Positions 656 through 61,799 of a stretch of 64,000 nt of DNA are shown here, one piece after another; the first letter of the stretch is position 1, and each line of letters begins with the position of its first letter. Source of the DNA: Botryllus schlosseri (Eukaryota); the NCBI GenBank assembly GCA_051294905.1, contig CM119372.1, forward strand, positions 26,352,001-26,416,000, given 5' to 3'. The position numbers and the translations under genes were made by a program. The notes beneath the pieces were generated by a model, which saw nothing but the letters and a program-made list of their open reading frames with translations, had not been told where the DNA came from and did not search any database.

Positions 656-739
656 TTTACTTCAAATCGTGCAATCGTCATCTCTGATTTGTGCAATAGG
701 CCTAAACAAGCTGCTAACCACCTACTAAAAGACGGACCT

Positions 740-21800: not shown

Positions 21801-24800
21801 CTCGATTTCTCCATGTTCCCGAAGGCCTAGAACTACAATTCCGGTATCAGAGTGTCTAACTCTGAAAGTTAGACCGATTGCACGCAATAACTTTTCCCTG
21901 ACTGTTGTACTTAGAGAGATATTGGCAAATTTTGACATTTTGGGGGGTATGAAATTGACCTCGATTTCTCCATGTTCCCGAAGGCCTAGAACTACAATTC
22001 CGGTATCAGAGTGTCTAACTCTGAAAGTTAGACCGATTGCACGCAATAACTTTTCCCTGACTGTTGTACTTAGAGAGATATTGGCAAATTTTGACATTTT
22101 GGGGGGTATGAAATTGACCTCGATTTCTCCATGTTCCCGAAGGCCTAGAACTACAATTCCGGTATCAGAGTGTCTAACTCTGAAAGTTAGACCGATTGCA
22201 CGCAATAACTTTTCCCTGACTGTTGTACTTAGAGAGATATTGGCAAATTTTGACATTTTGGGGGGTATGAAATTGACCTCGATTTCTCCATGTTCCCGAA
22301 GGCCTAGAACTACAATTCCGGTATCAGAGTGTCTAACTCTGAAAGTTAGACCGATTGCACGCAATAACTTTTCCCTGACTGTTGTACTTAGAGAGATATT
22401 GGCAAATTTTGACATTTTGGGGGGTATGAAATTGACCTCGATTTCTCCATGTTCCCGAAGGCCTAGAACTACAATTCCGGTATCAGAGTGTCTAACTCTG
22501 AAAGTTAGACCGATTGCACGCAATAACTTTTCCCTGACTGTTGTACTTAGAGAGATATTGGCAAATTTTGACATTTTGGGGGGTATGAAATTGACCTCGA
22601 TTTCTCCATGTTCCCGAAGGCCTAGAACTACAATTCCGGTATCAGAGTGTCTAACTCTGAAAGTTAGACCGATTGCACGCAATAACTTTTCCCTGACTGT
22701 TGTACTTAGAGAGATATTGGCAAATTTTGACATTTTGGGGGGTATGAAATTGACCTCGATTTCTCCATGTTCCCGAAGGCCTAGAACTACAATTCCGGTA
22801 TCAGAGTGTCTAACTCTGAAAGTTAGACCGATTGCACGCAATAACTTTTCCCTGACTGTTGTACTTAGAGAGATATTGGCAAATTTTGACATTTTGGGGG
22901 GTATGAAATTGACCTCGATTTCTCCATGTTCCCGAAGGCCTAGAACTACAATTCCGGTATCAGAGTGTCTAACTCTGAAAGTTAGACCGATTGCACGCAA
23001 TAACTTTTCCCTGACTGTTGTACTTAGAGAGATATTGGCAAATTTTGACATTTTGGGGGGTATGAAATTGACCTCGATTTCTCCATGTTCCCGAAGGCCT
23101 AGAACTACAATTCCGGTATCAGAGTGTCTAACTCTGAAAGTTAGACCGATTGCACGCAATAACTTTTCCCTGACTGTTGTACTTAGAGAGATATTGGCAA
23201 ATTTTGACATTTTGGGGGGTATGAAATTGACCTCGATTTCTCCATGTTCCCGAAGGCCTAGAACTACAATTCCGGTATCAGAGTGTCTAACTCTGAAAGT
23301 TAGACCGATTGCACGCAATAACTTTTCCCTGACTGTTGTACTTAGAGAGATATTGGCAAATTTTGACATTTTGGGGGGTATGAAATTGACCTCGATTTCT
23401 CCATGTTCCCGAAGGCCTAGAACTACAATTCCGGTATCAGAGTGTCTAACTCTGAAAGTTAGACCGATTGCACGCAATAACTTTTCCCTGACTGTTGTAC
23501 TTAGAGAGATATTGGCAAATTTTGACATTTTGGGGGGTATGAAATTGACCTCGATTTCTCCATGTTCCCGAAGGCCTAGAACTACAATTCCGGTATCAGA
23601 GTGTCTAACTCTGAAAGTTAGACCGATTGCACGCAATAACTTTTCCCTGACTGTTGTACTTAGAGAGATATTGGCAAATTTTGACATTTTGGGGGGTATG
23701 AAATTGACCTCGATTTCTCCATGTTCCCGAAGGCCTAGAACTACAATTCCGGTATCAGAGTGTCTAACTCTGAAAGTTAGACCGATTGCACGCAATAACT
23801 TTTCCCTGACTGTTGTACTTAGAGAGATATTGGCAAATTTTGACATTTTGGGGGGTATGAAATTGACCTCGATTTCTCCATGTTCCCGAAGGCCTAGAAC
23901 TACAATTCCGGTATCAGAGTGTCTAACTCTGAAAGTTAGACCGATTGCACGCAATAACTTTTCCCTGACTGTTGTACTTAGAGAGATATTGGCAAATTTT
24001 GACATTTTGGGGGGTATGAAATTGACCTCGATTTCTCCATGTTCCCGAAGGCCTAGAACTACAATTCCGGTATCAGAGTGTCTAACTCTGAAAGTTAGAC
24101 CGATTGCACGCAATAACTTTTCCCTGACTGTTGTACTTAGAGAGATATTGGCAAATTTTGACATTTTGGGGGGTATGAAATTGACCTCGATTTCTCCATG
24201 TTCCCGAAGGCCTAGAACTACAATTCCGGTATCAGAGTGTCTAACTCTGAAAGTTAGACCGATTGCACGCAATAACTTTTCCCTGACTGTTGTACTTAGA
24301 GAGATATTGGCAAATTTTGACATTTTGGGGGGTATGAAATTGACCTCGATTTCTCCATGTTCCCGAAGGCCTAGAACTACAATTCCGGTATCAGAGTGTC
24401 TAACTCTGAAAGTTAGACCGATTGCACGCAATAACTTTTCCCTGACTGTTGTACTTAGAGAGATATTGGCAAATTTTGACATTTTGGGGGGTATGAAATT
24501 GACCTCGATTTCTCCATGTTCCCGAAGGCCTAGAACTACAATTCCGGTATCAGAGTGTCTAACTCTGAAAGTTAGACCGATTGCACGCAATAACTTTTCC
24601 CTGACTGTTGTACTTAGAGAGATATTGGCAAATTTTGACATTTTGGGGGGTATGAAATTGACCTCGATTTCTCCATGTTCCCGAAGGCCTAGAACTACAA
24701 TTCCGGTATCAGAGTGTCTAACTCTGAAAGTTAGACCGATTGCACGCAATAACTTTTCCCTGACTGTTGTACTTAGAGAGATATTGGAAAATTTTGACAT

Positions 24801-26079
24801 TTTGGGGGGTATGAAATTGACCTCGATTTCTCCATGTTCCCGAAGGCCTAGAACTACAATTCCGGTATCAGAGTGTCTAACTCTGAAAGTTAGACCGATT
24901 GCACGCAATAACTTTTCCCTGACTGTTGTACTTAGAGAGATATTGGCAAATTTTGACATTTTGGGGGGTATGAAATTGACCTCGATTTCTCCATGTTCCC
25001 GAAGGCCTAGAACTACAATTCCGGTATCAGAGTGTCTAACTCTGAAAGTTAGACCGATTGCACGCAATAACTTTTCCCTGACTGTTGTACTTAGAGAGAT
25101 ATTGGCAAATTTTGACATTTTGGGGGGTATGAAATTGACCTCGATTTCTCCATGTTCCCGAAGGCCTAGAACTACAATTCCGGTATCAGAGTGTCTAACT
25201 CTGAAAGTTAGACCGATTGCACGCAATAACTTTTCCCTGACTGTTGTACTTAGAGAGATATTGGCAAATTTTGACATTTTGGGGGGTATGAAATTGACCT
25301 CGATTTCTCCATGTTCCCGAAGGCCTAGAACTACAATTCCGGTATCAGAGTGTCTAACTCTGAAAGTTAGACCGATTGCACGCAATAACTTTTCCCTGAC
25401 TGTTGTACTTAGAGAGATATTGGCAAATTTTGACATTTTGGGGGGTATGAAATTGACCTCGATTTCTCCATGTTCCCGAAGGCCTAGAACTACAATTCCG
25501 GTATCAGAGTGTCTAACTCTGAAAGTTAGACCGATTGCACGCAATAACTTTTCCCTGACTGTTGTACTTAGAGAGATATTGGCAAATTTTGACATTTTGG
25601 GGGGTATGAAATTGACCTCGATTTCTCCATGTTCCCGAAGGCCTAGAACTACAATTCCGGTATCAGAGTGTCTAACTCTGAAAGTTAGACCGATTGCACG
25701 CAATAACTTTTCCCTGACTGTTGTACTTAGAGAGATATTGGCAAATTTTGACATTTTGGGGGGTATGAAATTGACCTCGATTTCTCCATGTTCCCGAAGG
25801 CCTAGAACTACAATTCCGGTATCAGAGTGTCTAACTCTGAAAGTTAGACCGATTGCACGCAATAACTTTTCCCTGACTGTTGTACTTAGAGAGATATTGG
25901 CAAATTTTGACATTTTGGGGGGTATGAAATTGACCTCGATTTCTCCATGTTCCCGAAGGCCTAGAACAGTGGTTCTTAACCTTTTTTCGTCCAGCGCCCC
26001 CTTTCAAAAATTATCGTGCTCCAGCGCCCCCCTCAACTTCATATTGTAAGGAATGTAATAAAGACAATGAGTAAGAGGG

Positions 26080-26993
26080 AGGGCCGTAACAGCACTTCGT
26101 CAACCCCCCTAAAAACGATTGCCTTGCGCACCCATAGCGTGATAAACCGAACTTCTGAGGGCTTCGCCCCCAAGAACCCCATATCGTGATTTTGATGGTC
26201 AGCAAAGTTTGTGTGGCCTGGTCGCCCTAGGTACCAAAATTTGCTATAATGCATGGTAATTACATTTATAAGTCGCTATAAACTTTTTATCCTCTCAGCC
26301 CACGTAATCAGATTTACCAGTAGCACTGAGTGAGCTGTTGTATAGGAAAATAAGGGGCACGTAATTAATAATCAAACATATTCGGGCGTTCCCGCAGGTA
26401 CAATTATTCGTTACCAGGGCCGTAACAGCACTTCGTCAGCCCCCCTCCCCAAACATAAAACGTTGGTCCTGGGCCCCCATCGGGTGATAAACCAAACTTC
26501 CGGGGGACTTCGCTCCCAGACCCCCATTAGGCTGTCCGCTATTTGCTGATAGCCTATTAGGTCTCTACATTGGGTGTACATTTACTGAGGGAGCTATTCT
26601 CGCGTAGTCGCGCGAAGTGCGAAAAATTTCACTAATTAATGATTGAATTGGTCAATATCATCGGGAATTGCATGTAAATTGAGATCAATTTTTATCCGCT
26701 CTCTGCTCACGTAAACACATTTACCGGTAGAGCTGAGTTAGGTGCAATGTTCCCTCTAAGCTGCGCACGTGCGCAGTGCTGACACGGTCTCTGCGCACAG
26801 AAAATCTACGTTGCGCACAACAAATCCGGAGTAATTACCTTTTTTTAGTCGTTACGCACTGTTGTCCAAGGGTCAGCGCAGTGAGTTGTTGAGTGTGCGC
26901 AGACTCATCAAAACTTAAAGCGAACATTGTGAGGTTTCTTGGAAACTGTAGGGCCCGTTACCAATAATTAAACATATTCGGGCAGGCGATCCC
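26080..26993 (+). repeat. Diverged internal tandem duplication within hAT element 1
   Basis: AGGGCCGTAACAGCACTTCGTCA is identical at 26080 and 26416. Collinear shared blocks follow (GTGATAAACC.AACTTC, TTTTTATCC, CACGTAA, ATTTACC.GTAG, and AAACATATTCGGGC at 26374 and 26970). Confidence 0.8.
26745..26929. mobile_element. Nested 185-bp MITE (probably hAT) inside element 1
   Basis: TIRs CAATGTTCCCTCTAAG and CTTAAAGCGAACATTG match at 14/16. Internal TGCGCA repeats are present. Flanks are a degenerate duplication (GTTAGGTG vs GTGAGGTT). The segment is absent from the equivalent position of the first internal duplicate (about 26330). Confidence 0.75.
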
Positions 26994-28461
26994 GTTAGTA
27001 TGACCTCGTTGCATGATGTTATTTCATGACCCCCTGTCTGCAATATCAAAAAATATAGAATCGCTCAACGGGGATATCGCCCAACAGGAATATCCCTGTC
27101 GCCCAATCGTACTAAACTAAAAGACGCACACGATTTCAGATTGGTATTTCTTCACTGACATATAATTTTTCCCTGCCAGATGGAATTCGTCTTCTGCGGT
27201 TCAGATTTCCAAGACAGGAACATTCGGTGTCAGCCATTTAGGCGCCCATGGACAATTAAACCTATATGTATTTTGAAGGTTATATGTAACGAAGTTTTCG
27301 GTGTTAATTTGCTCTGAATACTCATTAAGGATATGTCCTATCACCACATCATCTACTGCGAAGCCATTTTTCTCCAGCGCCCCCCATACCGCCCCCCTGA
27401 GCCCAGCGCCCCCCATATCGCCCCCTGAGCGTTTCCGCCCCCCTTCAACATCGCCAGCGCCCCCCGGGGGGCGCTGGGGGCAAGGTTAAGAACCACTGGC
27501 CTAGAACTACAATTCCGGTATCAGAGTGTCTAACTCTGAAAGTTAGACCGATTGCACGCAATAACTTTTCCCTGACTGTTGTACTTAGAGAGATATTGGC
27601 AAATTTTGACATTTTGGGGGGTATGAAATTGACCTCGATTTCTCCATGTTCCCGAAGGCCTAGAACTACAATTCCGGTATCAGAGTGTCTAACTCTGAAA
27701 GTTAGACCGATTGCACGCAATAACTTTTCCCTGACTGTTGTACTTAGAGAGATATTGGCAAATTTTGACATTTTGGGGGGTATGAAATTGACCTCGATTT
27801 CTCCATGTTCCCGAAGGCCTAGAACTACAATTCCGGTATCAGAGTGTCTAACTCTGAAAGTTAGACCGATTGCACGCAATAACTTTTCCCTGACTGTTGT
27901 ACTTAGAGAGATATTGGCAAATTTTGACATTTTGGGGGGTATGAAATTGACCTCGATTTCTCCATGTTCCCGAAGGCCTAGAACTACAATTCCGGTATCA
28001 GAGTGTCTAACTCTGAAAGTTAGACCGATTGCACGCAATAACTTTTCCCTGACTGTTGTACTTAGAGAGATATTGGCAAATTTTGACATTTTGGGGGGTA
28101 TGAAATTGACCTCGATTTCTCCATGTTCCCGAAGGCCTAGAACTACAATTCCGGTATCAGAGTGTCTAACTCTGAAAGTTAGACCGATTGCACGCAATAA
28201 CTTTTCCCTGACTGTTGTACTTAGAGAGATATTGGCAAATTTTGACATTTTGGGGGGTATGAAATTGACCTCGATTTCTCCATGTTCCCGAAGGCCTAGA
28301 ACTACAATTCCGGTATCAGAGTGTCTAACTCTGAAAGTTAGACCGATTGCACGCAATAACTTTTCCCTGACTGTTGTACTTAGAGAGATATTGGCAAATT
28401 TTGACATTTTGGGGGGTATGAAATTGACCTCGATTTCTCCATGTTCCCGAAGGCCTAGAAC

Positions 28462-28561
28462 NNNNNNNNNNNNNNNNNNNNNNNNNNNNNNNNNNNNNNN
28501 NNNNNNNNNNNNNNNNNNNNNNNNNNNNNNNNNNNNNNNNNNNNNNNNNNNNNNNNNNNNN
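28462..28561. other. Assembly gap (100 N, placeholder of unknown size)
   Basis: Run of exactly 100 N with satellite on both sides in the same orientation. Confidence 0.99.
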
Positions 28562-31500
28562 ATGAAATTGACCTCGATTTCTCCATGTTCCCGAAGGCCT
28601 AGAACTACAATTCCGGTATCAGAGTGTCTAACTCTGAAAGTTAGACCGATTGCACGCAATAACTTTTCCCTGACTGTTGTACTTAGAGAGATATTGGCAA
28701 ATTTTGACATTTTGGGGGGTATGAAATTGACCTCGATTTCTCCATGTTCCCGAAGGCCTAGAACTACAATTCCGGTATCAGAGTGTCTAACTCTGAAAGT
28801 TAGACCGATTGCACGCAATAACTTTTCCCTGACTGTTGTACTTAGAGAGATATTGGCAAATTTTGACATTTTGGGGGGTATGAAATTGACCTCGATTTCT
28901 CCATGTTCCCGAAGGCCTAGAACTACAATTCCGGTATCAGAGTGTCTAACTCTGAAAGTTAGACCGATTGCACGCAATAACTTTTCCCTGACTGTTGTAC
29001 TTAGAGAGATATTGGCAAATTTTGACATTTTGGGGGGTATGAAATTGACCTCGATTTCTCCATGTTCCCGAAGGCCTAGAACTACAATTCCGGTATCAGA
29101 GTGTCTAACTCTGAAAGTTAGACCGATTGCACGCAATAACTTTTCCCTGACTGTTGTACTTAGAGAGATATTGGCAAATTTTGACATTTTGGGGGGTATG
29201 AAATTGACCTCGATTTCTCCATGTTCCCGAAGGCCTAGAACTACAATTCCGGTATCAGAGTGTCTAACTCTGAAAGTTAGACCGATTGCACGCAATAACT
29301 TTTCCCTGACAGTTGTACTTAGAGAGATATTGGCAAATTTTGACATTTTGGGGGGTATGAAATTGACCTCGATTTCTCCATGTTCCCGAAGGCCTAGAAC
29401 TACAATTCCGGTATCAGAGTGTCTAACTCTGAAAGTTAGACCGATTGCACGCAATAACTTTTCCCTGACTGTTGTACTTAGAGAGATATTGGCAAATTTT
29501 GACATTTTGGGGGGTATGAAATTGACCTCGATTTCTCCATGTTCCCGAAGGCCTAGAACTACAATTCCGGTATCAGAGTGTCTAACTCTGAAAGTTAGAC
29601 CGATTGCACGCAATAACTTTTCCCTGACTGTTGTACTTAGAGAGATATTGGCAAATTTTGACATTTTGGGGGGTATGAAATTGACCTCGATTTCTCCATG
29701 TTCCCGAAGGCCTAGAACTACAATTCCGGTATCAGAGTGTCTAACTCTGAAAGTTAGACCGATTGCACGCAATAACTTTTCCCTGACTGTTGTACTTAGA
29801 GAGATATTGGCAAATTTTGACATTTTGGGGGGTATGAAATTGACCTCGATTTCTCCATGTTCCCGAAGGCCTAGAACTACAATTCCGGTATCAGAGTGTC
29901 TAACTCTGAAAGTTAGACCGATTGCACGCAATAACTTTTCCCTGACTGTTGTACTTAGAGAGATATTGGCAAATTTTGACATTTTGGGGGGTATGAAATT
30001 GACCTCGATTTCTCCATGTTCCCGAAGGCCTAGAACTACAATTCCGGTATCAGAGTGTCTAACTCTGAAAGTTAGACCGATTGCACGCAATAACTTTTCC
30101 CTGACTGTTGTACTTAGAGAGATATTGGCAAATTTTGACATTTTGGGGGGTATGAAATTGACCTCGATTTCTCCATGTTCCCGAAGGCCTAGAACTACAA
30201 TTCCGGTATCAGAGTGTCTAACTCTGAAAGTTAGACCGATTGCACGCAATAACTTTTCCCTGACTGTTGTACTTAGAGAGATATTGGCAAATTTTGACAT
30301 TTTGGGGGGTATGAAATTGACCTCGATTTCTCCATGTTCCCGAAGGCCTAGAACTACAATTCCGGTATCAGAGTGTCTAACTCTGAAAGTTAGACCGATT
30401 GCACGCAATAACTTTTCCCTGACTGTTGTACTTAGAGAGATATTGGCAAATTTTGACATTTTGGGGGGTATGAAATTGACCTCGATTTCTCCATGTTCCC
30501 GAAGGCCTAGAACTACAATTCCGGTATCAGAGTGTCTAACTCTGAAAGTTAGACCGATTGCACGCAATAACTTTTCCCTGACTGTTGTACTTAGAGAGAT
30601 ATTGGCAAATTTTGACATTTTGGGGGGTATGAAATTGACCTCGATTTCTCCATGTTCCCGAAGGCCTAGAACTACAATTCCGGTATCAGAGTGTCTAACT
30701 CTGAAAGTTAGACCGATTGCACGCAATAACTTTTCCCTGACTGTTGTACTTAGAGAGATATTGGCAAATTTTGACATTTTGGGGGGTATGAAATTGACCT
30801 CGATTTCTCCATGTTCCCGAAGGCCTAGAACTACAATTCCGGTATCAGAGTGTCTAACTCTGAAAGTTAGACCGATTGCACGCAATAACTTTTCCCTGAC
30901 TGTTGTACTTAGAGAGATATTGGCAAATTTTGACATTTTGGGGGGTATGAAATTGACCTCGATTTCTCCATGTTCCCGAAGGCCTAGAACTACAATTCCG
31001 GTATCAGAGTGTCTAACTCTGAAAGTTAGACCGATTGCACGCAATAACTTTTCCCTGACTGTTGTACTTAGAGAGATATTGGCAAATTTTGACATTTTGG
31101 GGGGTATGAAATTGACCTCGATTTCTCCATGTTCCCGAAGGCCTAGAACTACAATTCCGGTATCAGAGTGTCTAACTCTGAAAGTTAGACCGATTGCACG
31201 CAATAACTTTTCCCTGACTGTTGTACTTAGAGAGATATTGGCAAATTTTGACATTTTGGGGGGTATGAAATTGACCTCGATTTCTCCATGTTCCCGAAGG
31301 CCTAGAACTACAATTCCGGTATCAGAGTGTCTAACTCTGAAAGTTAGACCGATTGCACGCAATAACTTTTCCCTGACTGTTGTACTTAGAGAGATATTGG
31401 CAAATTTTGACATTTTGGGGGGTATGAAATTGACCTCGATTTCTCCATGTTCCCGAAGGCCTAGAACTACAATTCCGGTATCAGAGTGTCTAACTCTGAA

Positions 31501-34500
31501 AGTTAGACCGATTGCACGCAATAACTTTTCCCTGACTGTTGTACTTAGAGAGATATTGGCAAATTTTGACATTTTGGGGGGTATGAAATTGACCTCGATT
31601 TCTCCATGTTCCCGAAGGCCTAGAACTACAATTCCGGTATCAGAGTGTCTAACTCTGAAAGTTAGACCGATTGCACGCAATAACTTTTCCCTGACTGTTG
31701 TACTTAGAGAGATATTGGCAAATTTTGACATTTTGGGGGGTATGAAATTGACCTCGATTTCTCCATGTTCCCGAAGGCCTAGAACTACAATTCCGGTATC
31801 AGAGTGTCTAACTCTGAAAGTTAGACCGATTGCACGCAATAACTTTTCCCTGACAGTTGTACTTAGAGAGATATTGGCAAATTTTAACATTTTGGGGGGT
31901 ATGAAATTGACCTCGATTTCTCCATGTTCCCGAAGGCCTAGAACTACAATTCCGGTATCAGAGTGTCTAACTCTGAAAGTTAGACCGATTGCACGCAATA
32001 ACTTTTCCCTGACTGTTGTACTTAGAGAGATATTGGCAAATTTTGACATTTTGGGGGGTATGAAATTGACCTCGATTTCTCCATGTTCCCGAAGGCCTAG
32101 AACTACAATTCCGGTATCAGAGTGTCTAACTCTGAAAGTTAGACCGATTGCACGCAATAACTTTTCCCTGACAGTTGTACTTAGAGAGATATTGACAAAT
32201 TTTGACATTTTGGGGGGTATGAAATTGACCTCGATTTCTCCATGTTCCCGAAGGCCTAGAACTACAATTCCGGTATCAGAGTGTTTACCTCTGATAGTTA
32301 GACCGATGGCACGCAATAACTTTTCCCTGACTGTTGTACTTAGAGAGATATTGGCAAATTTTGACATTTTGGGGGGTATGAAATTGACCTCGATTTCTCC
32401 ATGTTCCCGAAGGCCTAGAACTACAATTCCGGTATCAGAGTGTCTAACTCTGAAAGTTAGACCGATTGCACGCAATAACTTTTCCCTGACTGTTGTACTT
32501 AGAGAGATATTGGCAAATTTTGACATTTTGGGGGGTATGAAATTGACCTCGATTTCTCCATGTTCCCGAAGGCCTAGAACTACAATTCCGGTATCAGAGT
32601 GTCTAACTCTGAAAGTTAGACCGATTGCACGCAATAACTTTTCCCTGACTGTTGTACTTAGAGAGATATTGGCAAATTTTGACATTTTGGGGGGTATGAA
32701 ATTGACCTCGATTTCTCCATGTTCCCGAAGGCCTAGAACTACAATTCCGGTATCAGAGTGTCTAACTCTGAAAGTTAGACCGATTGCACGCAATAACTTT
32801 TCCCTGACTGTTGTACTTAGAGAGATATTGGCAAATTTTGACATTTTGGGGGGTATGAAATTGACCTCGATTTCTCCATGTTCCCGAAGGCCTAGAACTA
32901 CAATTCCGGTATCAGAGTGTCTAACTCTGAAAGTTAGACCGAATACACGCAATAACTTCTCCCTGACTGTTGTACTTAGAGAGATATTGGCAAATTTTGA
33001 CATTTTGGGGGGTATGAAATTGACCTCGATTTCTCCATGTTCCCGAAGGCCTAGAACTACAATTCCGGTATCAGAGTGTCTAACTCTGAAAGTTAGACCG
33101 ATTGCACGCAATAACTTTTCCCTGACTGTTGTACTTAGAGAGATATTGGCAAATTTTGACATTTTGGGGGGTATGAAATTGACCTCGATTTCTCCATGTT
33201 CCCGAAGGCCTAGAACTACAATTCCGGTATCAGAGTGTCTAACTCTGAAAGTTAGACCGATTGCACGCAATAACTTTTCCCTGACTGTTGTACTTAGAGA
33301 GATATTGGCAAATTTTGACATTTTGGGGGGTATGAAATTGACCTCGATTTCTCCATGTTCCCGAAGGCCTAGAACTACAATTCCGGTATCAGAGTGTCTA
33401 ACTCTGAAAGTTAGACCGATTGCACGCAATAACTTTTCCCTGACTGTTGTACTTAGAGAGATATTGGCAAATTTTGACATTTTGGGGGGTATGAAATTGA
33501 CCTCGATTTCTCCATGTTCCCGAAGGCCTAGAACTACAATTCCGGTATCAGAGTGTCTAACTCTGAAAGTTAGACCGATTGCACGCAATAACTTTTCCCT
33601 GACTGTTGTACTTAGAGAGATATTGGCAAATTTTGACATTTTGGGGGGTATGAAATTGACCTCGATTTCTCCATGTTCCCGAAGGCCTAGAACTACAATT
33701 CCGGTATCAGAGTGTCTAACTCTGAAAGTTAGACCGATTGCACGCAATAACTTTTCCCTGACTGTTGTACTTAGAGAGATATTGGCAAATTTTGACATTT
33801 TGGGGGGTATGAAATTGACCTCGATTTCTCCATGTTCCCGAAGGCCTAGAACTACAATTCCGGTATCAGAGTGTCTAACTCTGAAAGTTAGACCGATTGC
33901 ACGCAATAACTTTTCCCTGACTGTTGTACTTAGAGAGATATTGGCAAATTTTGACATTTTGGGGGGTATGAAATTGACCTCGATTTCTCCATGTTCCCGA
34001 AGGCCTAGAACTACAATTCCGGTATCAGAGTGTCTAACTCTGAAAGTTAGACCGATTGCACGCAATAACTTTTCCCTGACTGTTGTACTTAGAGAGATAT
34101 TGGCAAATTTTGACATTTTGGGGGGTATGAAATTGACCTCGATTTCTCCATGTTCCCGAAGGCCTAGAACTACAATTCCGGTATCAGAGTGTCTAACTCT
34201 GAAAGTTAGACCGATTGCACGCAATAACTTTTCCCTGACTGTTGTACTTAGAGAGATATTGGCAAATTTTGACATTTTGGGGGGTATGAAATTGACCTCG
34301 ATTTCTCCATGTTCCCGAAGGCCTAGAACTACAATTCCGGTATCAGAGTGTCTAACTCTGAAAGTTAGACCGATTGCACGCAATAACTTTTCCCTGACTG
34401 TTGTACTTAGAGAGATATTGGCAAATTTTGACATTTTGGGGGGTATGAAATTGACCTCGATTTCTCCATGTTCCCGAAGGCCTAGAACTACAATTCCGGT

Positions 34501-37348
34501 ATCAGAGTGTCTAACTCTGAAAGTTAGACCGATTGCACGCAATAACTTTTCCCTGACTGTTGTACTTAGAGAGATATTGGCAAATTTTGACATTTTGGGG
34601 GGTATGAAATTGACCTCGATTTCTCCATGTTCCCGAAGGCCTAGAACTACAATTCCGGTATCAGAGTGTCTAACTCTGAAAGTTAGACCGATTGCACGCA
34701 ATAACTTTTCCCTGACTGTTGTACTTAAAGAGATATTGGCAAATTTTGACATTTTGGGGGGTATGAAATTGACCTCGATTTCTCCATGTTCCCGAAGGCC
34801 TAGAACTACAATTCCGGTATCAGAGTGTCTAACTCTGAAAGTTAGACCGATTGCACGCAATAACTTTTCCCTGACTGTTGTACTTAGAGAGATATTGGCA
34901 AATTTTGACATTTTGGGGGGTATGAAATTGACCTCGATTTCTCCATGTTCCCGAAGGCCTAGAACTACAATTCCGGTATCAGAGTGTCTAACTCTGAAAG
35001 TTAGACCGATTGCACGCAATAACTTTTCCCTGACTGTTGTACTTAGAGAGATATTGGCAAATTTTGACATTTTGGGGGGTATGAAATTGACCTCGATTTC
35101 TCCATGTTCCCGAAGGCCTAGAACTACAATTCCGGTATCAGAGTGTCTAACTCTGAAAGTTAGACCGATTGCATGCAATAACTTTTCCCTGACTGTTGTA
35201 CTTAGAGAGATATTGGCAAATTTTGACATTTTGGGGGGTATGAAATTGACCTCGATTTCTCCATGTTCCCGAAGGCCTAGAACTACAATTCCGGTATCAG
35301 AGTGTCTAACTCTGAAAGTTAGACCGATTGCACGCAATAACTTTTCCCTGACTGTTGTACTTAGAGAGATATTGGCAAATTTTGACATTTTGGGGGGTAT
35401 GAAATTGACCTCGATTTCTCCATGTTCCCGAAGGCCTAGAACTACAATTCCGGTATCAGAGTGTCTAACTCTGAAAGTTAGACCGATTGCACGCAATAAC
35501 TTTTCCCTGACTGTTGTACTTAGAGAGATATTGGCAAATTTTGACATTTTGGGGGGTATGAAATTGACCTCGATTTCTCCATGTTCCCGAAGGCCTAGAA
35601 CTACAATTCCGGTATCAGAGTGTCTAACTCTGAAAGTTAGACCGATTGCACGCAATAACTTTTCCCTGACTGTTGTACTTAGAGAGATATTGGCAAATTT
35701 TGACATTTTGGGGGGTATGAAATTGACCTCGATTTCTCCATGTTCCCGAAGGCCTAGAACTACAATTCCGGTATCAGAGTGTCTAACTCTGAAAGTTAGA
35801 CCGATTGCACGCAATAACTTTTCCCTGACTGTTGTACTTAGAGAGATATTGGCAAATTTTGACATTTTGGGGGGTATGAAATTGACCTCGATTTCTCCAT
35901 GTTCCCGAAGGCCTAGAACTACAATTCCGGTATCAGAGTGTCTAACTCTGAAAGTTAGACCGATTGCACGCAATAACTTTTCCCTGACTGTTGTACTTAG
36001 AGAGATATTGGCAAATTTTGACATTTTGGGGGGTATGAAATTGACCTCGATTTCTCCATGTTCCCGAAGGCCTAGAACTACAATTCCGGTATCAGAGTGT
36101 CTAACTCTGAAAGTTAGACCGATTGCACGCAATAACTTTTCCCTGACTGTTGTACTTAGAGAGATATTGGCAAATTTTGACATTTTGGGGGGTATGAAAT
36201 TGACCTCGATTTCTCCATGTTCCCGAAGGCCTAGAACTACAATTCCGGTATCAGAGTGTCTAACTCTGAAAGTTAGACCGATTGCACGCAATAACTTTTC
36301 CCTGACTGTTGTACTTAAAGAGATATTGGCAAATTTTGACATTTTGGGGGGTATGAAATTGACCTCGATTTCTCCATGTTCCCGAAGGCCTAGAACTACA
36401 ATTCCGGTATCAGAGTGTCTAACTCTGAAAGTTAGACCGATTGCACGCAATAACTTTTCCCTGACTGTTGTACTTAAAGAGATATTGGCAAATTTTGACA
36501 TTTTGGGGGGTATGAAATTGACCTCGATTTCTCCATGTTCCCGAAGGCCTAGAACTACAATTCCGGTATCAGAGTGTCTAACTCTGAAAGTTAGACCGAT
36601 TGCACGCAATAACTTTTCCCTGACTGTTGTACTTAGAGAGATATTGGCAAATTTTGACATTTTGGGGGGTATGAAATTGACCTCGATTTCTCCATGTTCC
36701 CGAAGGCCTAGAACTACAATTCCGGTATCAGAGTGTCTAACTCTGAAAGTCAGACCGATTGCACGCAATAACTTTTCCCTGACTGTTGTACTTAGAGAGA
36801 TATTGGCAAATTTTGACATTTTGGGGGGTATGAAATTGACCTCGATTTCTCCATGTTCCCGAAGGCCTAGAACTACAATTCCGGTATCAGAGTGTCTAAC
36901 TCTGAAAGTTAGACCGATTGCACGCAATAACTTTTCCCTGACTGTTGTACTTAGAGAGATATTGGCAAATTTTGACATTTTGGGGGGTATGAAATTGACC
37001 TCGATTTCTCCATGTTCCCGAAGGCCTAGAACTACAATTCCGGTATCAGAGTGTCTAACTCTGAAAGTTAGACCGATTGCACGCAATAACTTTTCCCTGA
37101 CTGTTGTACTTAGAGAGATATTGGCAAATTTTGACATTTTGGGGGTATGAAATTGATCTCGATTTCTCCATGTTCCCGAAGGCCTAGAACTACAATTCCG
37201 GTATCAGAGTGTCTAACTCTGAAAGTTAGACCGATTGCACGCAATAACTTTTCCCTGACTGTTGTACTTAGAGAGATATTGGCAAATTTTGACATTTTGG
37301 GGGGTATGAAATTGACCTCGATTTCTCCATGTTCCCGAAGGCCTAGAA

Positions 37349-39061
37349 CAGAGGTCTCAAACACGCGGCCCGCGGGCCGCATGCGGCCCGGGAGACCATT
37401 TTGTGCGGCCCGCGACGGCATTTTGGAATTTCAAGTATTCACCAATATATTCAAGTGCCGTATATCTTTTTTAGATATAAGAACTTAAAGTTCACGCTAA
37501 AACTACTACAAAATAACCGAAATCTCAACAAACTTCACTATCACATCTCTTTTAAAAGCTACCATGCTATGGAAGATCGGCTTATTACGTTTCATTATAA
37601 GTTTATAATGATAAGACATGACCCGTTGATGAATCGTGACTGAATATTGTGATTTGGTTTGATGCGACCTTTTCGTTACTCGATTTCGGATGGACTGGGT
37701 GATTAAATTAAAATGACTCGAGTTGAGTCGAATCAAACGTCAAAATCAGAGAAGGACTTGCGACTCGGAACGGTGACTTGTTTGGTAATCCTACGGACGC
37801 AACAATCTATGAAACCGTCATGGGGAATGGTAATATATCAAAAGGTTGTAGCTTGCGTTGGGTGGGGTACATGGCTATCTAATCAGGTCAGAATGGCAGC
37901 CATTGGTATTCTGTGACCCCCGTGACGTATAGTTGAATATATGCTACGTGTTGTTTGTGCTCTTTATCCATGTTATTATCGTTGGCGAGTAAGGTAGTAT
38001 TTCGCTCTCAAGCTGTAACACCAATGAATTCTTCGCCGATTGGACATTTCAATTCCAGGGGTTCTTAACCAGCAGGGTCCGTAGACTACATCGGGGTACC
38101 AAGCACCACATCAGGGTGTACGAGATACATGGTGGAATTAGTCCAATATGCTGTGGAATATTTTCTTGGCCAATTGATTCAACTGGAAAATATTCCCCGC
38201 GCTTCCCAAATGACTTGTAAGCCGCAACAACTTTGGCATTCGATATTATGACGTCACTTTCAATGGTTACGTCGCAAATTATAATTATAATTAATTATTT
38301 ATGTCTCGATTCGATGAAATAGTGTTACGCACGATTTCAAGTGAATGGTCTTTCTGATTTTAATATAGGTAGAAGTACCATCAGAAACTGTGGTGTAAAT
38401 GGACAGGGGCTACGAGAAATCTTATTGAAAGCACAAGGGGTACGATCGCTAAAAAGGTTAGGAAGCAATGCTATTACTATTGCTCAATAATGATTATATT
38501 TAAGTTGCTATTGGTTATTGATATATTCCAATATAAATCGAAGGCAAAATCTAACGCTGATTTAGTTTGACTTTGGTAATGACAGAAACAACAGCCGATA
38601 CTTATCACGACTGTATCAAAACCAGGATTAGGCTACACCGCTCAAATGCTCTGATATCAGATCAATCTTCAGTAGATTTTAAAATATTTTACATAGAATT
38701 GTGGCACGTTAAATGTCCACTAGCTGCAATATTATAACCCGACAGTCTTACGATGTCATGAGGCATGCTCTCGTATGATATCTATATATAATAATAATAT
38801 ATATAATTAAAAAGATTATGCCCGGTAAAAAATCAATTTTATTGAAATACTTCACAATGTGTTATTTTCGTGTCAAGAGTGAATAATGCAATAGTAAATT
38901 ACATTACCACGATGTTTGTGGAATGCCTGTCTGCAAGGTCCCGTCAAATAAGGCCTATTTTGAAATTATACATTGAATATCCCTAAGAGTGGTGCTGCGG
39001 CCCGCGGCGTCATCAAAAACTGGGAAATGGCCCGCGAGCACATTTGAGTTTGAGACCTCTG
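37349..39061 (+). mobile_element. Non-autonomous hAT (Charlie/Buster-like) DNA transposon, family 2, 1713 bp
   Basis: TIRs CAGAGGTCTCAAAC (37349-37362 and 39048-39061) are perfect over 14 bp and 15/16 when extended. Perfect 8-bp TSD GCCTAGAA (37341-37348 and 39062-39069). Subterminal GCGGCCCGC motifs at both ends. AT-rich interior with no transposase ORF. Strand is assigned by analogy only. Confidence 0.93.
38056..38470 (+). mobile_element. Degenerate nested hAT-like MITE (about 415 bp) inside element 2
   Basis: The left end CAGGGGTTCTTAACC and the right end AAAAAGGTTAGGAAGCAATG form an 11/15 inverted match. GGGGTAC(G)-like subterminal motifs occur near both ends (about 38093, 38114, 38406, 38437). 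No recognisable TSD. Confidence 0.55.
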
Positions 39062-41299
39062 GCCTAGAACTACAATTCCGGTATCAGAGTGTCTAACTCT
39101 GAAAGTTAGACCGATTGCACGCAATAACTTTTCCCTGACTGTTGTACTTAGAGAGATATTGGCAAATTTTGACATTTTGGGGGGTATGAAATTGACCTCG
39201 ATTTCTCCATGTTCCCGAAGGCCTAGAACTACAATTCCGATATCAGAGTGTCTAACTCTGAAAGTTAGACCGATTGCACGCAATAACTTCTCCCTGACTG
39301 TTGTACTTAGAGAGATATTGGCAAATTTTGACATTTTGGGGGGTATGAAATTGACCTCGATTTCTCCATGTTCCCGAAGGCCTAGAACTACAATTCCGGT
39401 ATCAGAGTGTCTAACTCTGAAAGTTAGACCGATTGCACGCAATAACTTTTCCCTGACTGTTGTACTTAGAGAGATATTGGCAAATTTTGACATTTTGGGG
39501 GGTATGAAATTGACCTCGATTTCTCCATGTTCCCGAATGCCTAGAACTACAATTCCGGTATCAGAGTGTCTAACTCTGAAAGTTAGACCGATTGCACGCA
39601 ATAACTTTTCCCTGACTGTTGTACTTAGAGAGATATTGGCAAATTTTGACATTTTGGGGGGTATGAAATTGACCTCGATTTCTCCATGTTCCCGAAGGCC
39701 TAGAACTACAATTCCGGTATCAGAGTGTCTAACTCTGAAAGTTAGACCGATTGCACGCAATAACTTTTCCCTGACTGTTGTACTTAGAGAGATATTGGCA
39801 AATTTTGACATTTTGGGGGGTATGAAATTGACCTCGATTTCTCCATGTTCCCGAAGGCCTAGAACTACAATTCCGGTATCAGAGTGTCTAACTCTGAAAG
39901 TTAGACCGATTGCACGCAATAACTTTTCCCTGACAGTTGTACTTAGAGAGATATTGGCAAATTTTGACATTTTGGGGGGGTATGAAATTGACCTCGATTT
40001 CTCCATGTTCCCGAAGGCCTAGAACTACAATTCCGGTATCAGAGTGTCTAACTCTGAAAGTTAGACCGATTGCACGCAATAACTTTTCTCTGACTGTTGT
40101 ACTTAGAGAGATATTGGCAAATTTTGACATTTTGGGGGGTATGAAATTGACCTCGATTTCTCCATGTTCCCGAAGGCCTAGCACTACAATTCCGGTATCA
40201 GAGTGTCTAACTCTGAAAGTTAGACCGATTGCACGCAATAACTTCTCCCTGACTGTTGTACTTAGAGAGATATTGGCAAATTTTGACATTTTGGGGGGTA
40301 TGAAATTGACCTCGATTTCTCCATGTTCCCGAAGGCCTAGAACTACAATTCCGGTATCAGAGTGTCTAACTCTGAAAGTTAGACCGATTGCACGCAATAA
40401 CTTTTCCCTGACTGTTGTACTTAGAGAGATATTGGCAAATTTTGACATTTTGGGGGGTATGAAATTGACCTCGATTTCTCCATGTTCCCGAAGGCCTAGA
40501 ACTACAATTCCGGTATCAGAGTGTCTAACTCTGAAAGTTAGACCGATTGCACGCAATAACTTTTCCCTGACTGTTGTACTTAGAGAGATATTGGCAAATT
40601 TTGACATTTTGGGGGGTATGAAATTGACCTCGATTTCTCCATGTTCCCGAAGGCCTAGAACTACAATTCCGGTATCAGAGTGTCTAACTCTGAAAGTTAG
40701 ACCGATTGCACGCAATAACTTTTCCCTGACTGTTGTACTTAGAGAGATATTGGCAAATTTTGACATTTTGGGGGTATGAAATTGACCTCGATTTCTCCAT
40801 GTTCCCGAAGGCCTAGAACTACAATTCCGGTATCAGAGTGTCTAACTCTGAAAGTTAGACCGATTGCACGCAATAACTTTTCCCTGACAGTTGTACTTAG
40901 AGAGATATTGGCAAATTTTGACATTTTGGGGGGTATGAAATTGACCTCGATTTCTCCATGTTCCCGAAGGCCTAGAACTACAATTCCGGTATCAGAGTGT
41001 CTAACTCTGAAAGTTAGACCGATTGCACGCAATAACTTTTCCCTGACTGTTGTACTTAGAGAGATATTGGCAAATTTTGACATTTTGGTTGTATGAAATT
41101 GACCTCGATTTCTCCATGTTCCCGAAGGCCTAGAACTACAATTCCGGTATCAGAGTGTCTAACTCTGAAAGTTAGACCGATTGCACGCAATAACTTTTCC
41201 CTGACTGTTGTACTTAGAGAGATATTGGCAAATTTTGACATTTTGGGGGGTATGAAATTGACCTCGATTTCTCCATGTTCCCGAAGGCCTAGAACTACA

Positions 41300-44160
41300 A
41301 TTCCGGTATCAGAGTGTCTAACTCTGAAAGTTAGACCGATTGCACGCAATAACTTTTCCCTGACAGTTGTACTTAGAGAGATATTGGCAAATTTTAACAT
41401 TTTGGGGGGTATGAAATTGACCTCGATTTCTCCATGTTCCCGAAGGCCTAGAACTACAATTCCGGTATCAGAGTGTCTAACTCTGAAAGTTAGACCGATT
41501 GCACGCAATAACTTTTCCCTGACAGTTGTACTTAGAGAGATATTGGCAAATTTTGACATTTTGGGGGTTATGAAATTGACCTCGATTTCTCCATGTTCCC
41601 GAAGGCCTAGAACTACAATTCCGGTATCAGAGTGTCTAACTCTGAAAGTTAGACCGATTGCACGCAATAACTTTTCCCTGACTGTTGTACTTAGAGAGAT
41701 ATTGGCAAATTTTGACATTTTGGGGGGTATGAAATTGACCTCGATTTCTCCATGTTCCCGAAGGCCTAGAACTACAATTCCGGTATCAGAGTGTCTAACT
41801 CTGAAAGTTAGAACGATTGCACGCAATAACTTTTCCCTGACTGTTGTACTTAGAGAGATATTGGCAAATTTTGACATTTTGGGGGGTATGAAATTGACCT
41901 CGATTTCTCCATGTTCCCGAAGGCCTAGAACTACAATTCCGGTATCAGAGTGTCTAACTCTGAAAGTTAGACCGATTGCACGCAATAACTTTTCCCTTAC
42001 AGTTGTACTTAGAGAGATATTGGCAAATTTTGACATTTTGGGGGGTATGAAATTGACCTCGATTTCTCCATGTTCCCGAAGGCCTAGAACTACAATTCCG
42101 GTATCAGAGTGTCTAACTCTGAAAGTTAGACCGATTGCACGCAATAACTTTTCCCTGACTGTTGTACTTAGAGAGATATTGGCAAATTTTGACATTTTTG
42201 GGGGTATGAAATTGACCTCGATTTCTCCATGTTCCCGAAGGCCTAGAACTACAATTCCGGTATCCGAGTGTCTAACTCTGAAAGTTAGACCGATTGCACG
42301 CAATAACTTTTCCCTGACTGTTGTACTTGGAGAGATATTGGCAAATTTTGACATTTTGGGGGGTATGAAATTGACCTCGATTTCTCCATGTTCCCGAAGG
42401 CCTAGAACTACAATTCCGGTATCAGAGTGTCTAACTCTGAAAGTTAGACCGATTGCACGCAATAACTTTTCCCTGACTGTTGTACTTAGATAGATATTGG
42501 CAAATTTTGACATTTTGGGGGGTATGAAATTGACCTCGATTTCTCCATGTTCCCGAAGGCCTAGAACTACAATTCCGGTATCAGAGTGTCTAACTCTGAA
42601 AGTTAGACCGATTGCACGCGATAACTTTTCCCTGACTGTTGTACTTAGAGAGATATTGGCAAATTTTGACATTTTGGGGGGTATGAAATTGACCTCGATT
42701 TCTCCATGTTCCCGAAGGCCTAGAACTACAATTCCGGTATCAGAGTGTCTAACTCTGAAAGTTAGACCGATTGCACGCAATAACTTTTCCCTGACAGTTG
42801 TACTTAGAGAGATATTGGCAAATTTTAACATTTTGGGGGGTATGAAATTGACCTCGATTTCTCCATGTTCCCGAAGGCCTAGAACTACAATTCCGGTATC
42901 AGAGTGTCTAACTCTGAAAGTTAGACCGATTGCACGCAATAACTTTTCCCTGACAGTTGTACTTAGAGAGATATTGGCAAATTTTGACATTTTGGGGGGT
43001 ATGAAATTGACCTCGATTTCTCCATGTTCCCGAAGGCCTAGAACTACAATTCCGGTATCAGAGTGTCTAACTCTGAAAGTTAGACCGATTGCACGCAATA
43101 ACTTTTCCCTGACTGTTGTACTTAGAGAGATATTGGCAAATTTTGACATTTTGGGGGGTATGAAATTGACCTCGATTTCTCCATGTTCCCGAAGGCCTAG
43201 AACTACAATTCCGGTATCAGAGTGTCTAACTCTGAAAGTTAGAACGATTGCACGCAATAACTTTTCCCTGACTGTTGTACTTAGAGAGATATTGGCAAAT
43301 TTTGACATTTTGGGGGGTATGAAATTGACCTCGATTTCTCCATGTTCCCGAAGGCCTAGAACTACAATTCCGGTATCAGAGTGTCTAACTCTGAAAGTTA
43401 GACCGATTGCACGCAATAACTTTTCCCTTACAGTTGTACTTAGAGAGATATTGGCAAATTTTGACATTTTGGGGGGTATGAAATTGACCTCGATTTCTCC
43501 ATGTTCCCGAAGGCCTAGAACTACAATTCCGGTATCAGAGTGTCTAACTCTGAAAGTTAGACCGATTGCACGCAATAACTTTTCCCTGACTGTTGTACTT
43601 AGAGAGATATTGGCAAATTTTGACATTTTTGGGGGTATGAAATTGACCTCGATTTCTCCATGTTCCCGAAGGCCTAGAACTACAATTCCGGTATCCGAGT
43701 GTCTAACTCTGAAAGTTAGACCGATTGCACGCAATAACTTTTCCCTGACTGTTGTACTTAGAGAGATATTGGCAAATTTTGACATTTTGGGGGGTATGAA
43801 ATTGACCTCGATTTCTCCATGTTCCCGAAGGCCTAGAACTACAATTCCGGTATCAGAGTGTCTAACTCTGAAAGTTAGACCGATTGCACGCAATAACTTT
43901 TCCCTGACAGTTGTACTTAGAGAGATATTGGCAAATTTTGACATTTTGGGGGGTATGAAATTGACCTCGATTTCTCCATGTTCCCGAAGGCCTAGAACTA
44001 CAATTCCGGTATCAGAGTGTCTAACTCTGAAAGTTAGACCGATTGCACGCAATAACTTTTCCCTTACAGTTGTACTTAGAATGATATTGGCAAATTTTGA
44101 CATTTTGGGGGGTATGAAATTGACCTCGATTTCTCCATGTTCCCGAAGGCCTAGAACTAC
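41300..44160 (+). repeat. 9-monomer (1431-bp) higher-order duplication in subfamily A
   Basis: Five private variants recur exactly 1431 bp apart: ATTTTAACA 41391/42822, GAACGATT 41811/43242, TTTCCCTTACAG 41991/43422, GACATTTTTG 42191/43622 and TATCCGAG 42261/43692. Boundaries are approximate. Confidence 0.85.
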
Positions 44161-47100
44161 AATTCCGGTATCAGAGTGTCTAACTCTGAAAGTTAGAACG
44201 ATTGCACGCAATAACTTTTCTCTGACTGTTGTACTTAGAGAGATATTGGCAAATTTTGACATTTTGGGGGGTATGAAATTGACCTCGATTTCTCCATGTT
44301 CCCGAAGGCCTAGAACTACAATTCCGGTATCAGAGTGTCTAACTCTGAAAGTTAGACCGATTGCACGCAATAACTTTTCCCTGACTGTTGTACTTAGAGA
44401 GATATTGGCAAATTTTGACATTTTGGGGGGTATGAAATTGACCTCGATTTCTCCATGTTCCCGAAGGCCTAGAACTACAATTCCGGTATCAGAGTGTCTA
44501 ACTCTGAAAGTTAGAACGATTGCACGCAATAACTTTTCCCTGACTGTTGTACTTAGAGAGATATTGGCAAATTTTGACATTTTGGGGGGTATGAAATTGA
44601 CCTCGATTTTTCCATGTTCCCGAAGGCCTAGAACTACAATTCCGGTATCAGAGTGTCTAACTCTGAAAGTTAGACCGATTGCACGCAATAACTTTTCCCT
44701 TACAGTTGTACTTAGAGAGATATTGGCAAATTTTGACATTTTGGGGGGTATGAAATTGACCTCGATTTCTCCATGTTCCCGAAGGCCTAGAACTACAATT
44801 CCGGTATCAGAGTGTCTAACTCTGAAAGTTAGACCGATTGCACGCAATAACTTTTCCCTGACTGTTGTACTTAGAGAGATATTGGCAAATTTTGACATTT
44901 TTGGGGGTATGAAATTGACCTCGATTTCTCCATGTTCCCGAAGGCCTAGAACTACAATTCCGGTATCAGAGTGTCTAACTCTGAAAGTTAGACCGATTGC
45001 ACGCAATAACTTTTCCCTGACTGTTGTACTTAGAGAGATATTGGCAAATTTTGACATTTTGGAGGGTATGAAATTGACCTCGATTTCTCCATGTTCCCGA
45101 AGGCCTAGAACTACAATTCCGGTATCAGAGCGTCTAACTCTGAAAGTTAGACCGATTGCACGCAATAACTTTTCCCTGACAGTTGTACTTAGAGAGATAT
45201 TGGCAAATTTTGACATTTTGGGGGGTATGAAATTGACCTCGATTTCTCCATGTTCCCGAAGGCCTAGAACTACAATTCCGGTATCAGAGTGTCTAACTCT
45301 GAAAGTTAGACCGATTGCACGCAATAACTTTTCCCTTACAGTTGTACTTAGAGAGATATTGGCAAATTTTGACATTTTGGGGGGTATGAAATTGACCTCG
45401 ATTTCTCCATGTTCCCGAAGGCCTAGAACTACAATTCCGGTATCAGAGTGTCTAACTCTGAAAGTTAGACCGATTGCACGCAATAACTTTTCCCTGACTG
45501 TTGTACTTAGAGAGATATTGGCAAATTTTGACATTTTGGGGGGTATGAAATTGACCTCGATTTCTCCATGTTCCCGAAGGCCTAGAACTACAATTCCGGT
45601 ATCAGAGTGTCTAACTCTGAAAGTTAGACCGATTGCACGCAATAACTTTTCCCTGACTGTTGTACTTAGAGAGATATTGGCAAATTTTGACATTTTGGGG
45701 GGTATGAAATTGACCTCGATTTCTCCATGTTCCCGAAGGCCTAGAACTACAATTCCGGTATCAGAGTGTCTAACTCTGAAAGTTAGACCGATTGCACGCA
45801 ATAACTTTTCCCTGACTGTTGTACTTAGAGAGATATTGGCAAATTTTGACATTTTGGGGCGTATGAAATTGACCTCGATTTCTCCATGTTCCCGAAGGCC
45901 TAGAACTACAATTCCGGTATCAGAGTGTCTAACTCTGAAAGTTAGACCGATTGCACGCAATAACTTTTCCCTGACTGTTGTACTTAGAGAGATATTGGCA
46001 AATTTTGACATTTTGGGGGTATGAAATTGACCTCGATTTCTCCATGTTCCCGAAGGCCTAGAACTACAATTCCGGTATCAGAGTGTCTAACTCTGAAAGT
46101 TAGACCGATTGCACGCAATAACTTTTCCCTGACTGTTGTACTTAGAGAGATATTGGCAAATTTTGACATTTTGAGGGGTATGAAATTGACCTCGATTTCT
46201 CCATGTTCCCGGAGGCCTAGAACTACAATTCCGGTATCAGAGTGTCTAACTCTGAAAGTTAGACCGATTGCACGCAATAACTTTTCCCTGACAGTTGTAC
46301 TTAGAGAGATATTGGCAAATTTTGACATTTTGGGGGGTATGAAATTGACCTCGATTTCTCCATGTTCCCGAAGGCCTAGAACTACAATTCCGGTATCAGA
46401 GTGTCTAACTCTGAAAGTTAGACCGATTGCACGCAATAACTTTTCCCTTACAGTTGTACTTAGAGAGATATTGGCAAATTTTGACATTTTGGGGGGTATG
46501 AAATTGACCTCGATTTCTCCATGTTCCCGAAGGCCTAGATCCACAATTCCGGTATCAGAGTGTCTAACTCTGAAAGTTAGACCGATTGCACGCAATAACT
46601 TTTCCCTGACTGTTGTACTTAGAGAGATATTGGCAAATTTTGACATTTTGGGGGGTATGAAATTGACCTCGATTTCTCCATGTTCCCGAAGGCCTAGAAC
46701 TACAATTCCGGTATCAGAGTGTCTAACTCTGAAAGTTAGAACGATTGCACGCAATAACTTTTCCCTGACTGTTGTACTTAGAGAGATATTGGCAAATTTT
46801 GACATTTTGGGGGGTATGAAATTGACCTCGATTTCTCCATGTTCCCGAAGGCCTAGAACTACAATTCCGGTATCAGAGTGTCTAACTCTGAAAGTTAGAC
46901 CGATTGCACGCAATAACTTTTCCCTGACTGTTGTACTTAGAGAGATATTGGCAAATTTTGACATTTTGGGGGGTATGAAATTGACCTCGATTTCTCCATG
47001 TTCCCGAAGGCCTAGAACTACAATTCCGGTATCAGAGTGTCTAACTCTGAAAGTTAGACCGATTGCACGCAATAACTTTTCCCTGACTGTTGTACTTAGA

Positions 47101-61770: not shown

Positions 61771-61799
61771 CTATGTTCCCGAAGGCCTAGAACTACAAT

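Follow-up and report, generated by a model that had tools for sequence, protein, structure and literature searches.

How do two unrelated transposable elements come to share the exact nucleotide at which they entered a tandem repeat? This question is raised by a stretch of 64,000 nucleotides from Botryllus schlosseri (GenBank assembly GCA_051294905.1, contig CM119372.1; G000:C2:26352001-26416000 in our searches), referred to here as the window. A satellite with a 159-bp unit spans positions 1030-63997 of the window according to Tandem Repeats Finder (TRF). It is interrupted by two hAT elements, elements 1 and 2, which are flanked by the same target-site duplication (TSD), GCCTAGAA. A first-pass annotation had proposed that the satellite acts as a recurring landing pad for such elements, possibly as part of a satellite- or centromere-targeting hAT system, and had named a preference for TA-centred targets as the fallback explanation. 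We followed up this proposal with searches that covered the whole assembly (495.5 Mb, 219 contigs). We conclude that the shared phase very probably reflects the ordinary palindromic target motif of hAT elements read against a tandem repeat, not satellite targeting. With the same high confidence, as part of one joint reading, we regard elements 1 and 2 as unrelated, recently active, non-autonomous hATs of the Buster/Charlie target type that inserted independently.

We first describe the two elements. The terminal inverted repeats (TIRs) of element 1, CAGTGGTTCTTAACCTT and AAGGTTAAGAACCACTG, match at 17 of 17 positions, and those of element 2, CAGAGGTCTCAAAC and GTTTGAGACCTCTG, at 14 of 14 (repeat finder). 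The interiors are unrelated, the best mutual blastn match being 15 nt with an E value of 0.25. Direct reading, the repeat finder and blastn thus agree with the annotation that two hATs with different TIRs, subterminal motifs and interiors share one TSD, and both TSDs lie in the same phase of the 159-bp unit. As the annotation had also observed, the TSD holds the sole CTAG of the monomer (CTAG occurs once per unit, TA ten times). The length of the duplication is formally ambiguous, between 8 and 10 bp, because the first C and the last G of the element match the monomer too; 8 bp is the hAT reading. An 8-bp TSD was found at both elements and at 14 further complete insertions, and both elements have short TIRs starting with CAG and ending with CTG. 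CAG-type ends are typical of hAT elements. The listing of open reading frames (ORFs) contained none longer than 94 aa within element 1 and none longer than 98 aa within element 2. No autonomous partner sharing the TIRs of either element turned up, although no systematic search for one was made.

In blastn, a dispersed copy on contig C1 (L004) shared 98.95% identity with element 1 over 1,524 bp and two others shared 96-97.6%, and the family is therefore young. The view that the insertions were independent and recent was upheld. An alternative is that the shared phase is an artefact, either of one insertion copied by amplification of the array or of a misassembled scaffold join. A gap of 100 N does separate the two elements, so that their spacing in the assembly may not be their true spacing, and units of an element plus a monomer do get copied in tandem elsewhere (contig C101 has 10 copies and C68 has 11). 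However, elements 1 and 2 have no common interior, and one cannot therefore have been copied from the other; both retain intact TIRs and TSDs within continuous satellite; and different families use the same site on at least 13 contigs. We consider an artefact extremely improbable.

The sequence preference of the two families was taken from their dispersed insertions. Target matrices were tallied by hand from 85 of the 88 element-1 rows and from 97 of the 100 listed element-2 rows. The row of the window itself and two rows with duplicate flanks were dropped from the element-1 tally, and three rows with duplicate flanks from the element-2 tally; the element-1 tally retains one duplicate pair (C7, C16) and one row from a related 177-bp satellite (C90:18916). 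TA occupied positions 4-5 of the TSD at 173 of the 182 dispersed sites (80/85 in the element-1 family and 93/97 in the element-2 family), and A or T was found three bases outside the TSD at 175 of the 182. The consensus of the TSD is the palindrome GTCTAGAC. For the right side, visual inspection of the listed right-end matches of element 2 showed the mirrored preference in 26 of the first 29 distinct rows. The consensus of the whole 14-bp palindromic motif, an 8-bp TSD with 3 bp on each side, is approximately W-Y-S / G-T-C-T-A-G-A-C / S-R-W.

Charlie elements are members of the Buster group, and the Ac group has the target consensus nTnnnnAn. In our hand tallies, both families have the nnnTAnnn target of the Buster group. 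TcBuster, according to the portions of the source consulted, makes 8-bp TSDs with the consensus nnnTAnnn (PMC3499496); the likeness lies in an 8-bp TSD with TA at positions 4-5, and the difference is that the elements in the window are non-autonomous. Excerpts of a second source describe the target motifs of TIR elements as palindromes reaching up to 3 bp beyond the TSD, with a motif of 14 bp for hobo, for which NTNNNNAN is listed (PMC3276498). The motif found here resembles that of hobo in being a 14-bp palindrome made of an 8-bp TSD plus 3 bp per side. It differs in sequence, since the hobo consensus in those excerpts is GTNCGNAC, whereas the present motif is similar to GTCTAGAC and has W at positions +3 and -3. 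What sets the present case apart from the TIR-element motifs is the target, a tandem repeat in which a weak preference becomes a sharply phased hot spot.

We then compared the motif with the 159-bp unit. Insertion odds were calculated as the matrix divided by the background, which had 39.8% GC and was taken from 20.6 kb of non-satellite DNA. The site used by both elements, aag/GCCTAGAA/cta (site a), is the sole very good match in the monomer. Its share of the insertion odds of the monomer was 0.87-0.91 with the element-1 matrix, 0.79-0.81 with the element-2 matrix and 0.85-0.88 with both pooled, while ACTTAGAG received 0.06-0.07 and AGTTAGAC 0.02. The odds of site a were 154-339, compared with 93-125 for the 99.9th percentile of the background. 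Under the motif, elements 1 and 2 would coincide at one site with a probability of ~0.69, against 1/159 = 0.006 if insertion were uniform. The fallback of the annotation, that preference for a TA-centred target explains the phase, is thus borne out both by the TA found at most dispersed sites and by the dominant share of site a. We propose that the hAT transposases of this genome choose targets by the 14-bp palindromic motif, and that site a, as the sole very good match per monomer, would funnel every satellite insertion to one phase; elements 1 and 2 would share their phase because of this choice. The transposases moving them are probably encoded elsewhere and would read the motif directly.

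This prediction was compared with site use across the assembly by means of a search pattern that joined 23 nt of satellite flank to CAGNGGT and allowed up to two mismatches. The search returned 50 matches at site a, on 13 contigs, and one at ACTTAGAG. It found no hAT ends at AGTTAGAC and no true ones at GTCTAACT, where the two matches were satellite variants. Intact contexts numbered 5,988 for site a and 4,944 for ACTTAGAG. The predicted ratio of site a to ACTTAGAG was 16-17:1, and the observed ratio was ~16:1 when counted as events and 50:1 when counted as copies; the probability of at least 16 of 17 events falling at site a was 0.73-0.75. A true excess at site a had been considered when a TSD-only matrix (share 0.31) was set against the counts of 50/1/0/0 at the four sites, and was dropped once flanks and denominators were added.

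To characterize the insertions at site a, 16 regions covering every group of the 50 matches were fetched, their junctions were read, and the inserts were compared all-against-all with blastn. We counted about 11 hAT families and 15-17 independent events. Independence was indicated by inserts in opposite orientation in some cases and by differing TSD variants, on both sides, in others. The element-1 family is present twice: its second copy, 1,171 bp long and 92.4% identical, lies in opposite orientation ~23 kb past the window in the same array. Element 2 is present once. Family C was found on contigs C101, C208 and C10, the autonomous family D (3.1-3.6 kb) in opposite orientations on C141 and C11, and family E on C68/C88 and on C12. 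One of the two family F copies is flanked on both sides by the TSD GCCTAGAT and the other by GCCTAGAG, and the remaining families are five singles. Two further inserts, L034 2436-3129 and L035 5225-6300, also lie at site a, though three mismatches kept them outside the search pattern.

The family D element on C11 (L034 3932-7515, at ~11.53 Mb of G000:C11) is 3,584 bp long, lies at site a and is apparently autonomous, with an ORF of 639 aa. Dimer_Tnp_hAT (E 8e-7) and zf-C2H2_12 were above the Pfam cut-off in this ORF, and DUF4371, at 23.1 bits, was below its cut-off of 32.1. The transposase had no match in PDB or NCBIfam. Its look-alikes in the Atlas were GTF2IRD2-, FAM200- and ZBED5-like proteins (scores 0.97-0.98), which we treat as a lead only. 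The inserts L026 5572-7495 and L030 523-2736 and 3775-5988 have site a as the left flank and a second-best site (ACTTAGAG or the 177-bp-type GTTTAGGA) as the right flank. This suggests recombination between copies at two sites, or deletions.

Some 11 families and ~16 events at a single phase, together with further matches at the homologous phase of the 177-bp satellite described below, are what might be expected of a dedicated satellite- or centromere-targeting hAT system, in which transposases tethered to the satellite would use it as a preferred landing pad. The genomic distribution of the two families argues against such a system. With up to two mismatches allowed, 2,246 sequences in the genome match the 23-nt left end of element 1. 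Among the 88 exact ends retrieved with their flank, 86 had unrelated flanks on 17 chromosome-size contigs, one was that of the window itself, and one lay in the sister satellite (C90). For element 2, the left end has 2,001 matches and the right end 2,102, and its first 30 nt occur exactly 440 times; no satellite flank was seen among the first 100 of the 2,001 listed left-end matches. Altogether, 86/88 element-1 ends and 100/100 listed element-2 ends are outside the satellite. Ends in the 159-bp satellite amount to 2 of 2,246 for the element-1 family and 1 of ~2,668 for the element-2 family, where the latter total is the count of 2,001 multiplied by 4/3 to allow for the excluded flank base. The satellite itself comprises 6,454 units (35-mer, up to three mismatches), or ~1.03 Mb, which is 0.2% of the assembly. 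Its share of both families is at or below proportionality to this fraction.

We also compared occupancy at the same 8-mer inside and outside the satellite. The 8-mer GCCTAGAA occurs 16,614 times in the genome, of which 3,696-6,454 are in satellite units. In 80 cases CAGNGGT follows it; 19 of these are in the satellite (6 events), and the other 61 were counted as non-satellite by failing the pattern of satellite flank plus CAGNGGT, not by inspection. Occupancy by CAGNGGT-type ends was thus 0.29-0.51% in the satellite when counted as copies and 0.09-0.16% when counted as events, compared with 0.47-0.60% elsewhere. A rate per site no higher in the satellite, with copies mostly dispersed, is the outcome that the annotation had said would speak for ordinary target preference, and its proposal of a targeting system was not sustained. 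In addition, the domains of the sole autonomous element found in the satellite are just those typical of hATs: Dimer_Tnp_hAT, DUF4371 and a C2H2 zinc finger. We judge a targeting system very unlikely.

R1 and R2 in ribosomal DNA (rDNA) and Pokey in 28S rDNA are site-specific elements that live almost only in their target repeat. The present case resembles them in having many independent insertions at one nucleotide position of a tandem unit. It differs in that more than 97% of the examined copies are elsewhere and the repeat is not enriched. Of the two marks of a site-specific transposon, most copies in the target repeat and a higher rate per equivalent site there, neither was found: 2 of 88 element-1 ends and 0 of 100 listed element-2 ends were in any satellite, and the rate in the repeat was not higher. 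A literature search, mostly at the level of titles and abstracts, found no paper describing a hot spot of hAT insertion within a satellite monomer. These results show that, in a tandem repeat, a weak palindromic target preference looks like precise site-specific targeting. Any claim that a DNA transposon targets satellites or centromeres accordingly needs the motifs of dispersed copies, denominators and background correction.

A second satellite served as an out-of-sample test of the sequence model. This 177-bp satellite is related to the 159-bp unit, has ~44,000 units genome-wide and lies at L023 1-4306, bordering one of the fetched regions. What the two satellites have conserved is the left flank TGTTCCCGARGGCCTA. 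For the 177-bp unit, the model gave shares of 0.48-0.51 to GCCTACAG, the homologue of site a, 0.30-0.37 to GTTTAGGA, 0.06-0.09 to AGTTACAT and 0.01-0.03 to ATTTATGA. The matches found were 40, 7, 0 and 0, respectively, where 40 stands for 48 matches minus 8 carrying the GCCTAGAG form, as tallied from the search rows. The denominators of the first two sites were nearly equal (43,241 and 45,154). The ranking of the sites was thus predicted correctly, and the two poor sites were empty. Rates between the satellites also followed the odds: counted as events per intact site, site a of the 159-bp unit reached ~0.27% and the 177-bp homologue ~0.07%, a ~3.9-fold difference where 4.1-4.8 was predicted.

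The numbers at the first two sites of the 177-bp unit bear on another explanation, in which a feature of chromatin or DNA shape, such as a positioned nucleosome leaving the site exposed or a bound protein, adds to the sequence preference. The homologue has 40 matches, and GTTTAGGA, with comparable predicted odds and an equal denominator, has 7; this is in line with such an explanation, as are the conservation of the flank TGTTCCCGARGGCCTA in both satellites and a unit length of 159-177 bp, near the nucleosome repeat. On the other hand, the sequence model alone predicts the 16:1 ratio in the 159-bp satellite, and the rates of the two satellites track the odds. The excess in the 177-bp unit lies wholly in the TIR classes CAGGGGT, CAAGGGT and TAGGGCT, which are outside the families whose motif was measured; CAGTGGT ends, the measured class, number 8 at the homologue and 7 at GTTTAGGA, near the prediction. 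The excess therefore leaves a small chance of an added effect of chromatin or wider context, which we regard as unlikely.

Several points weigh against explaining the phase by the target motif. The site-a homologue in the 177-bp unit exceeds its prediction 3-4-fold relative to GTTTAGGA, and a matrix without division by the background, which we rejected, gave the wrong order of sites in that unit, the order being right after division. With the 8 TSD positions alone, the share of site a in the 159-bp unit is just 0.31-0.45; with the flanks, before background division, it is 0.82. The fit of the model hinges on including three bases of flank, on taking the right flank as a mirror image, and on matrices that were tallied by hand for just two families. 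The background sample is small (20.6 kb) and has mean odds of 0.62-0.80, where 1 is expected, and the event counts depend on our grouping of matches. Finally, copies in the satellite are fewer than expected from its sequence: the odds correspond to 1.8-3 times the background rate per bp, and the copy numbers are well below this. Something beyond sequence also acts, with the age of the array, chromatin, or collapse of the array in the assembly as candidates.

Besides single insertions, we observed units in which a hAT element plus one to a few monomers had been amplified in tandem, with spacings mostly of 2.3-8.2 kb. The most copies were found on the two contigs mentioned above, C68 (11) and C101 (10, with commonest periods of 2,293 and 2,453 bp), followed by C11 (7), C208 (4), C10 (3), C65 (2) and C141 (2). 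The corresponding higher-order-repeat loci are L011-L020, L024, L025, L028, L030, L033 and L034. The unit amplified on C11 carries the autonomous family D element.

A macrotransposon structure was found at G000:C2:7229070-7235895 (L041, L031). It consists of two family C copies of 2,576 and 4,067 bp in the same orientation, with 99.7% identity across 2,331 bp; between them is just one complete 159-bp unit, running from GCCTAGAG to GCCTAGAA. An outer 8-bp duplication, TACTAGCC, is common to both ends and lies in non-satellite DNA. Maize Ac/Ds elements form macrotransposons. The likeness to these lies in two copies in direct orientation that enclose DNA within an outer TSD; the difference is that the cargo here, known from sequence alone, is exactly one satellite unit with the hot-spot site bounding both sides. 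If every hAT inserts in the same phase, neighbouring elements would bracket whole monomers exactly. The observations bear on the evolution of satellites: units of transposon plus monomer become higher-order repeats and that phase-locked insertions make macrotransposons with an exact-monomer cargo. It appears doubtful that such macrotransposons regularly carry satellite units to new sites and that hAT activity is a main route by which the satellite spreads; if they do, the carried units could seed new arrays or element-plus-monomer higher-order repeats.

Many chromosome-size contigs carry arrays of the 159-bp family, in one location or a few per contig. The window contains 372 copies of GCCTAGAA, and of the 371 spacings between them 348 equal 159 bp; large interruptions occur just twice, as spacings of 1,540 and 1,721 bp. 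The array continues to G000:C2:26454613, which is ~101.6 kb from position 1030 plus the gap, with roughly 600 monomers besides those at the insertions and three interruptions in total, each at site a. The annotation had called the array very young. This holds up to ~52 kb, where monomers differ from the consensus by 0-1.2 bases, and fails for 52-64 kb, where they differ by 6-10 bases. The features of the window are listed in Table 1.

Table 1 Features of the 64,000-nucleotide window, in window positions.
Feature	Position	Strand	Details
hAT-like fragment adjoining first satellite unit	593..1029		TIR-like CAGTGGTTCTCAACCTTTT starts at 593; read directly
Satellite block 1	1030..25958	+	TRF period 159, 156.8 copies, 99% matches; 0-0.16 bases off consensus
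TSD of element 1, left, GCCTAGAA	25959..25966		read directly
Element 1, non-autonomous hAT, 1,532 bp	25967..27498		TIRs 25967-25983 / 27482-27498; CCAGCGCCCCC subterminal repeats
TSD of element 1, right, GCCTAGAA	27499..27506		read directly
Satellite block 2, contains assembly gap	27507..37340	+	TRF
100-N assembly gap	28462..28561		between elements 1 and 2, 956 bp past right TSD of element 1
TSD of element 2, left, GCCTAGAA	37341..37348		read directly
Element 2, non-autonomous hAT, 1,713 bp	37349..39061		TIRs 37349-37362 / 39048-39061; GGCCCGCG subterminal repeats
TSD of element 2, right, GCCTAGAA	39062..39069		read directly
Satellite block 3, diverged subtype from ~52 kb	39070..63997	+	TRF

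At the left border of the array, the first satellite unit begins mid-monomer at position 1030, and the sequence at 731-1016, just before it, is similar to internal sequence of family C elements (blastn, 291 bp at 87-88% identity). The idea that the whole array lies inside a macrotransposon was rejected, as the right border does not resemble family C and is unrelated to the fragment at the left border. The units at 52000-63997 form a satellite subtype with 6-10 differences per unit and less regular unit lengths. Past the window, in L037 (G000:C2:26416001-26426000), ~1 kb of satellite matches is inverted within an array that otherwise runs in one direction. The satellite unit equals 53 codons and is free of stops in several frames on both strands, and the ORF lister accordingly gives frames of 3,000-4,100 aa across the array; these long frames are no evidence of a gene.

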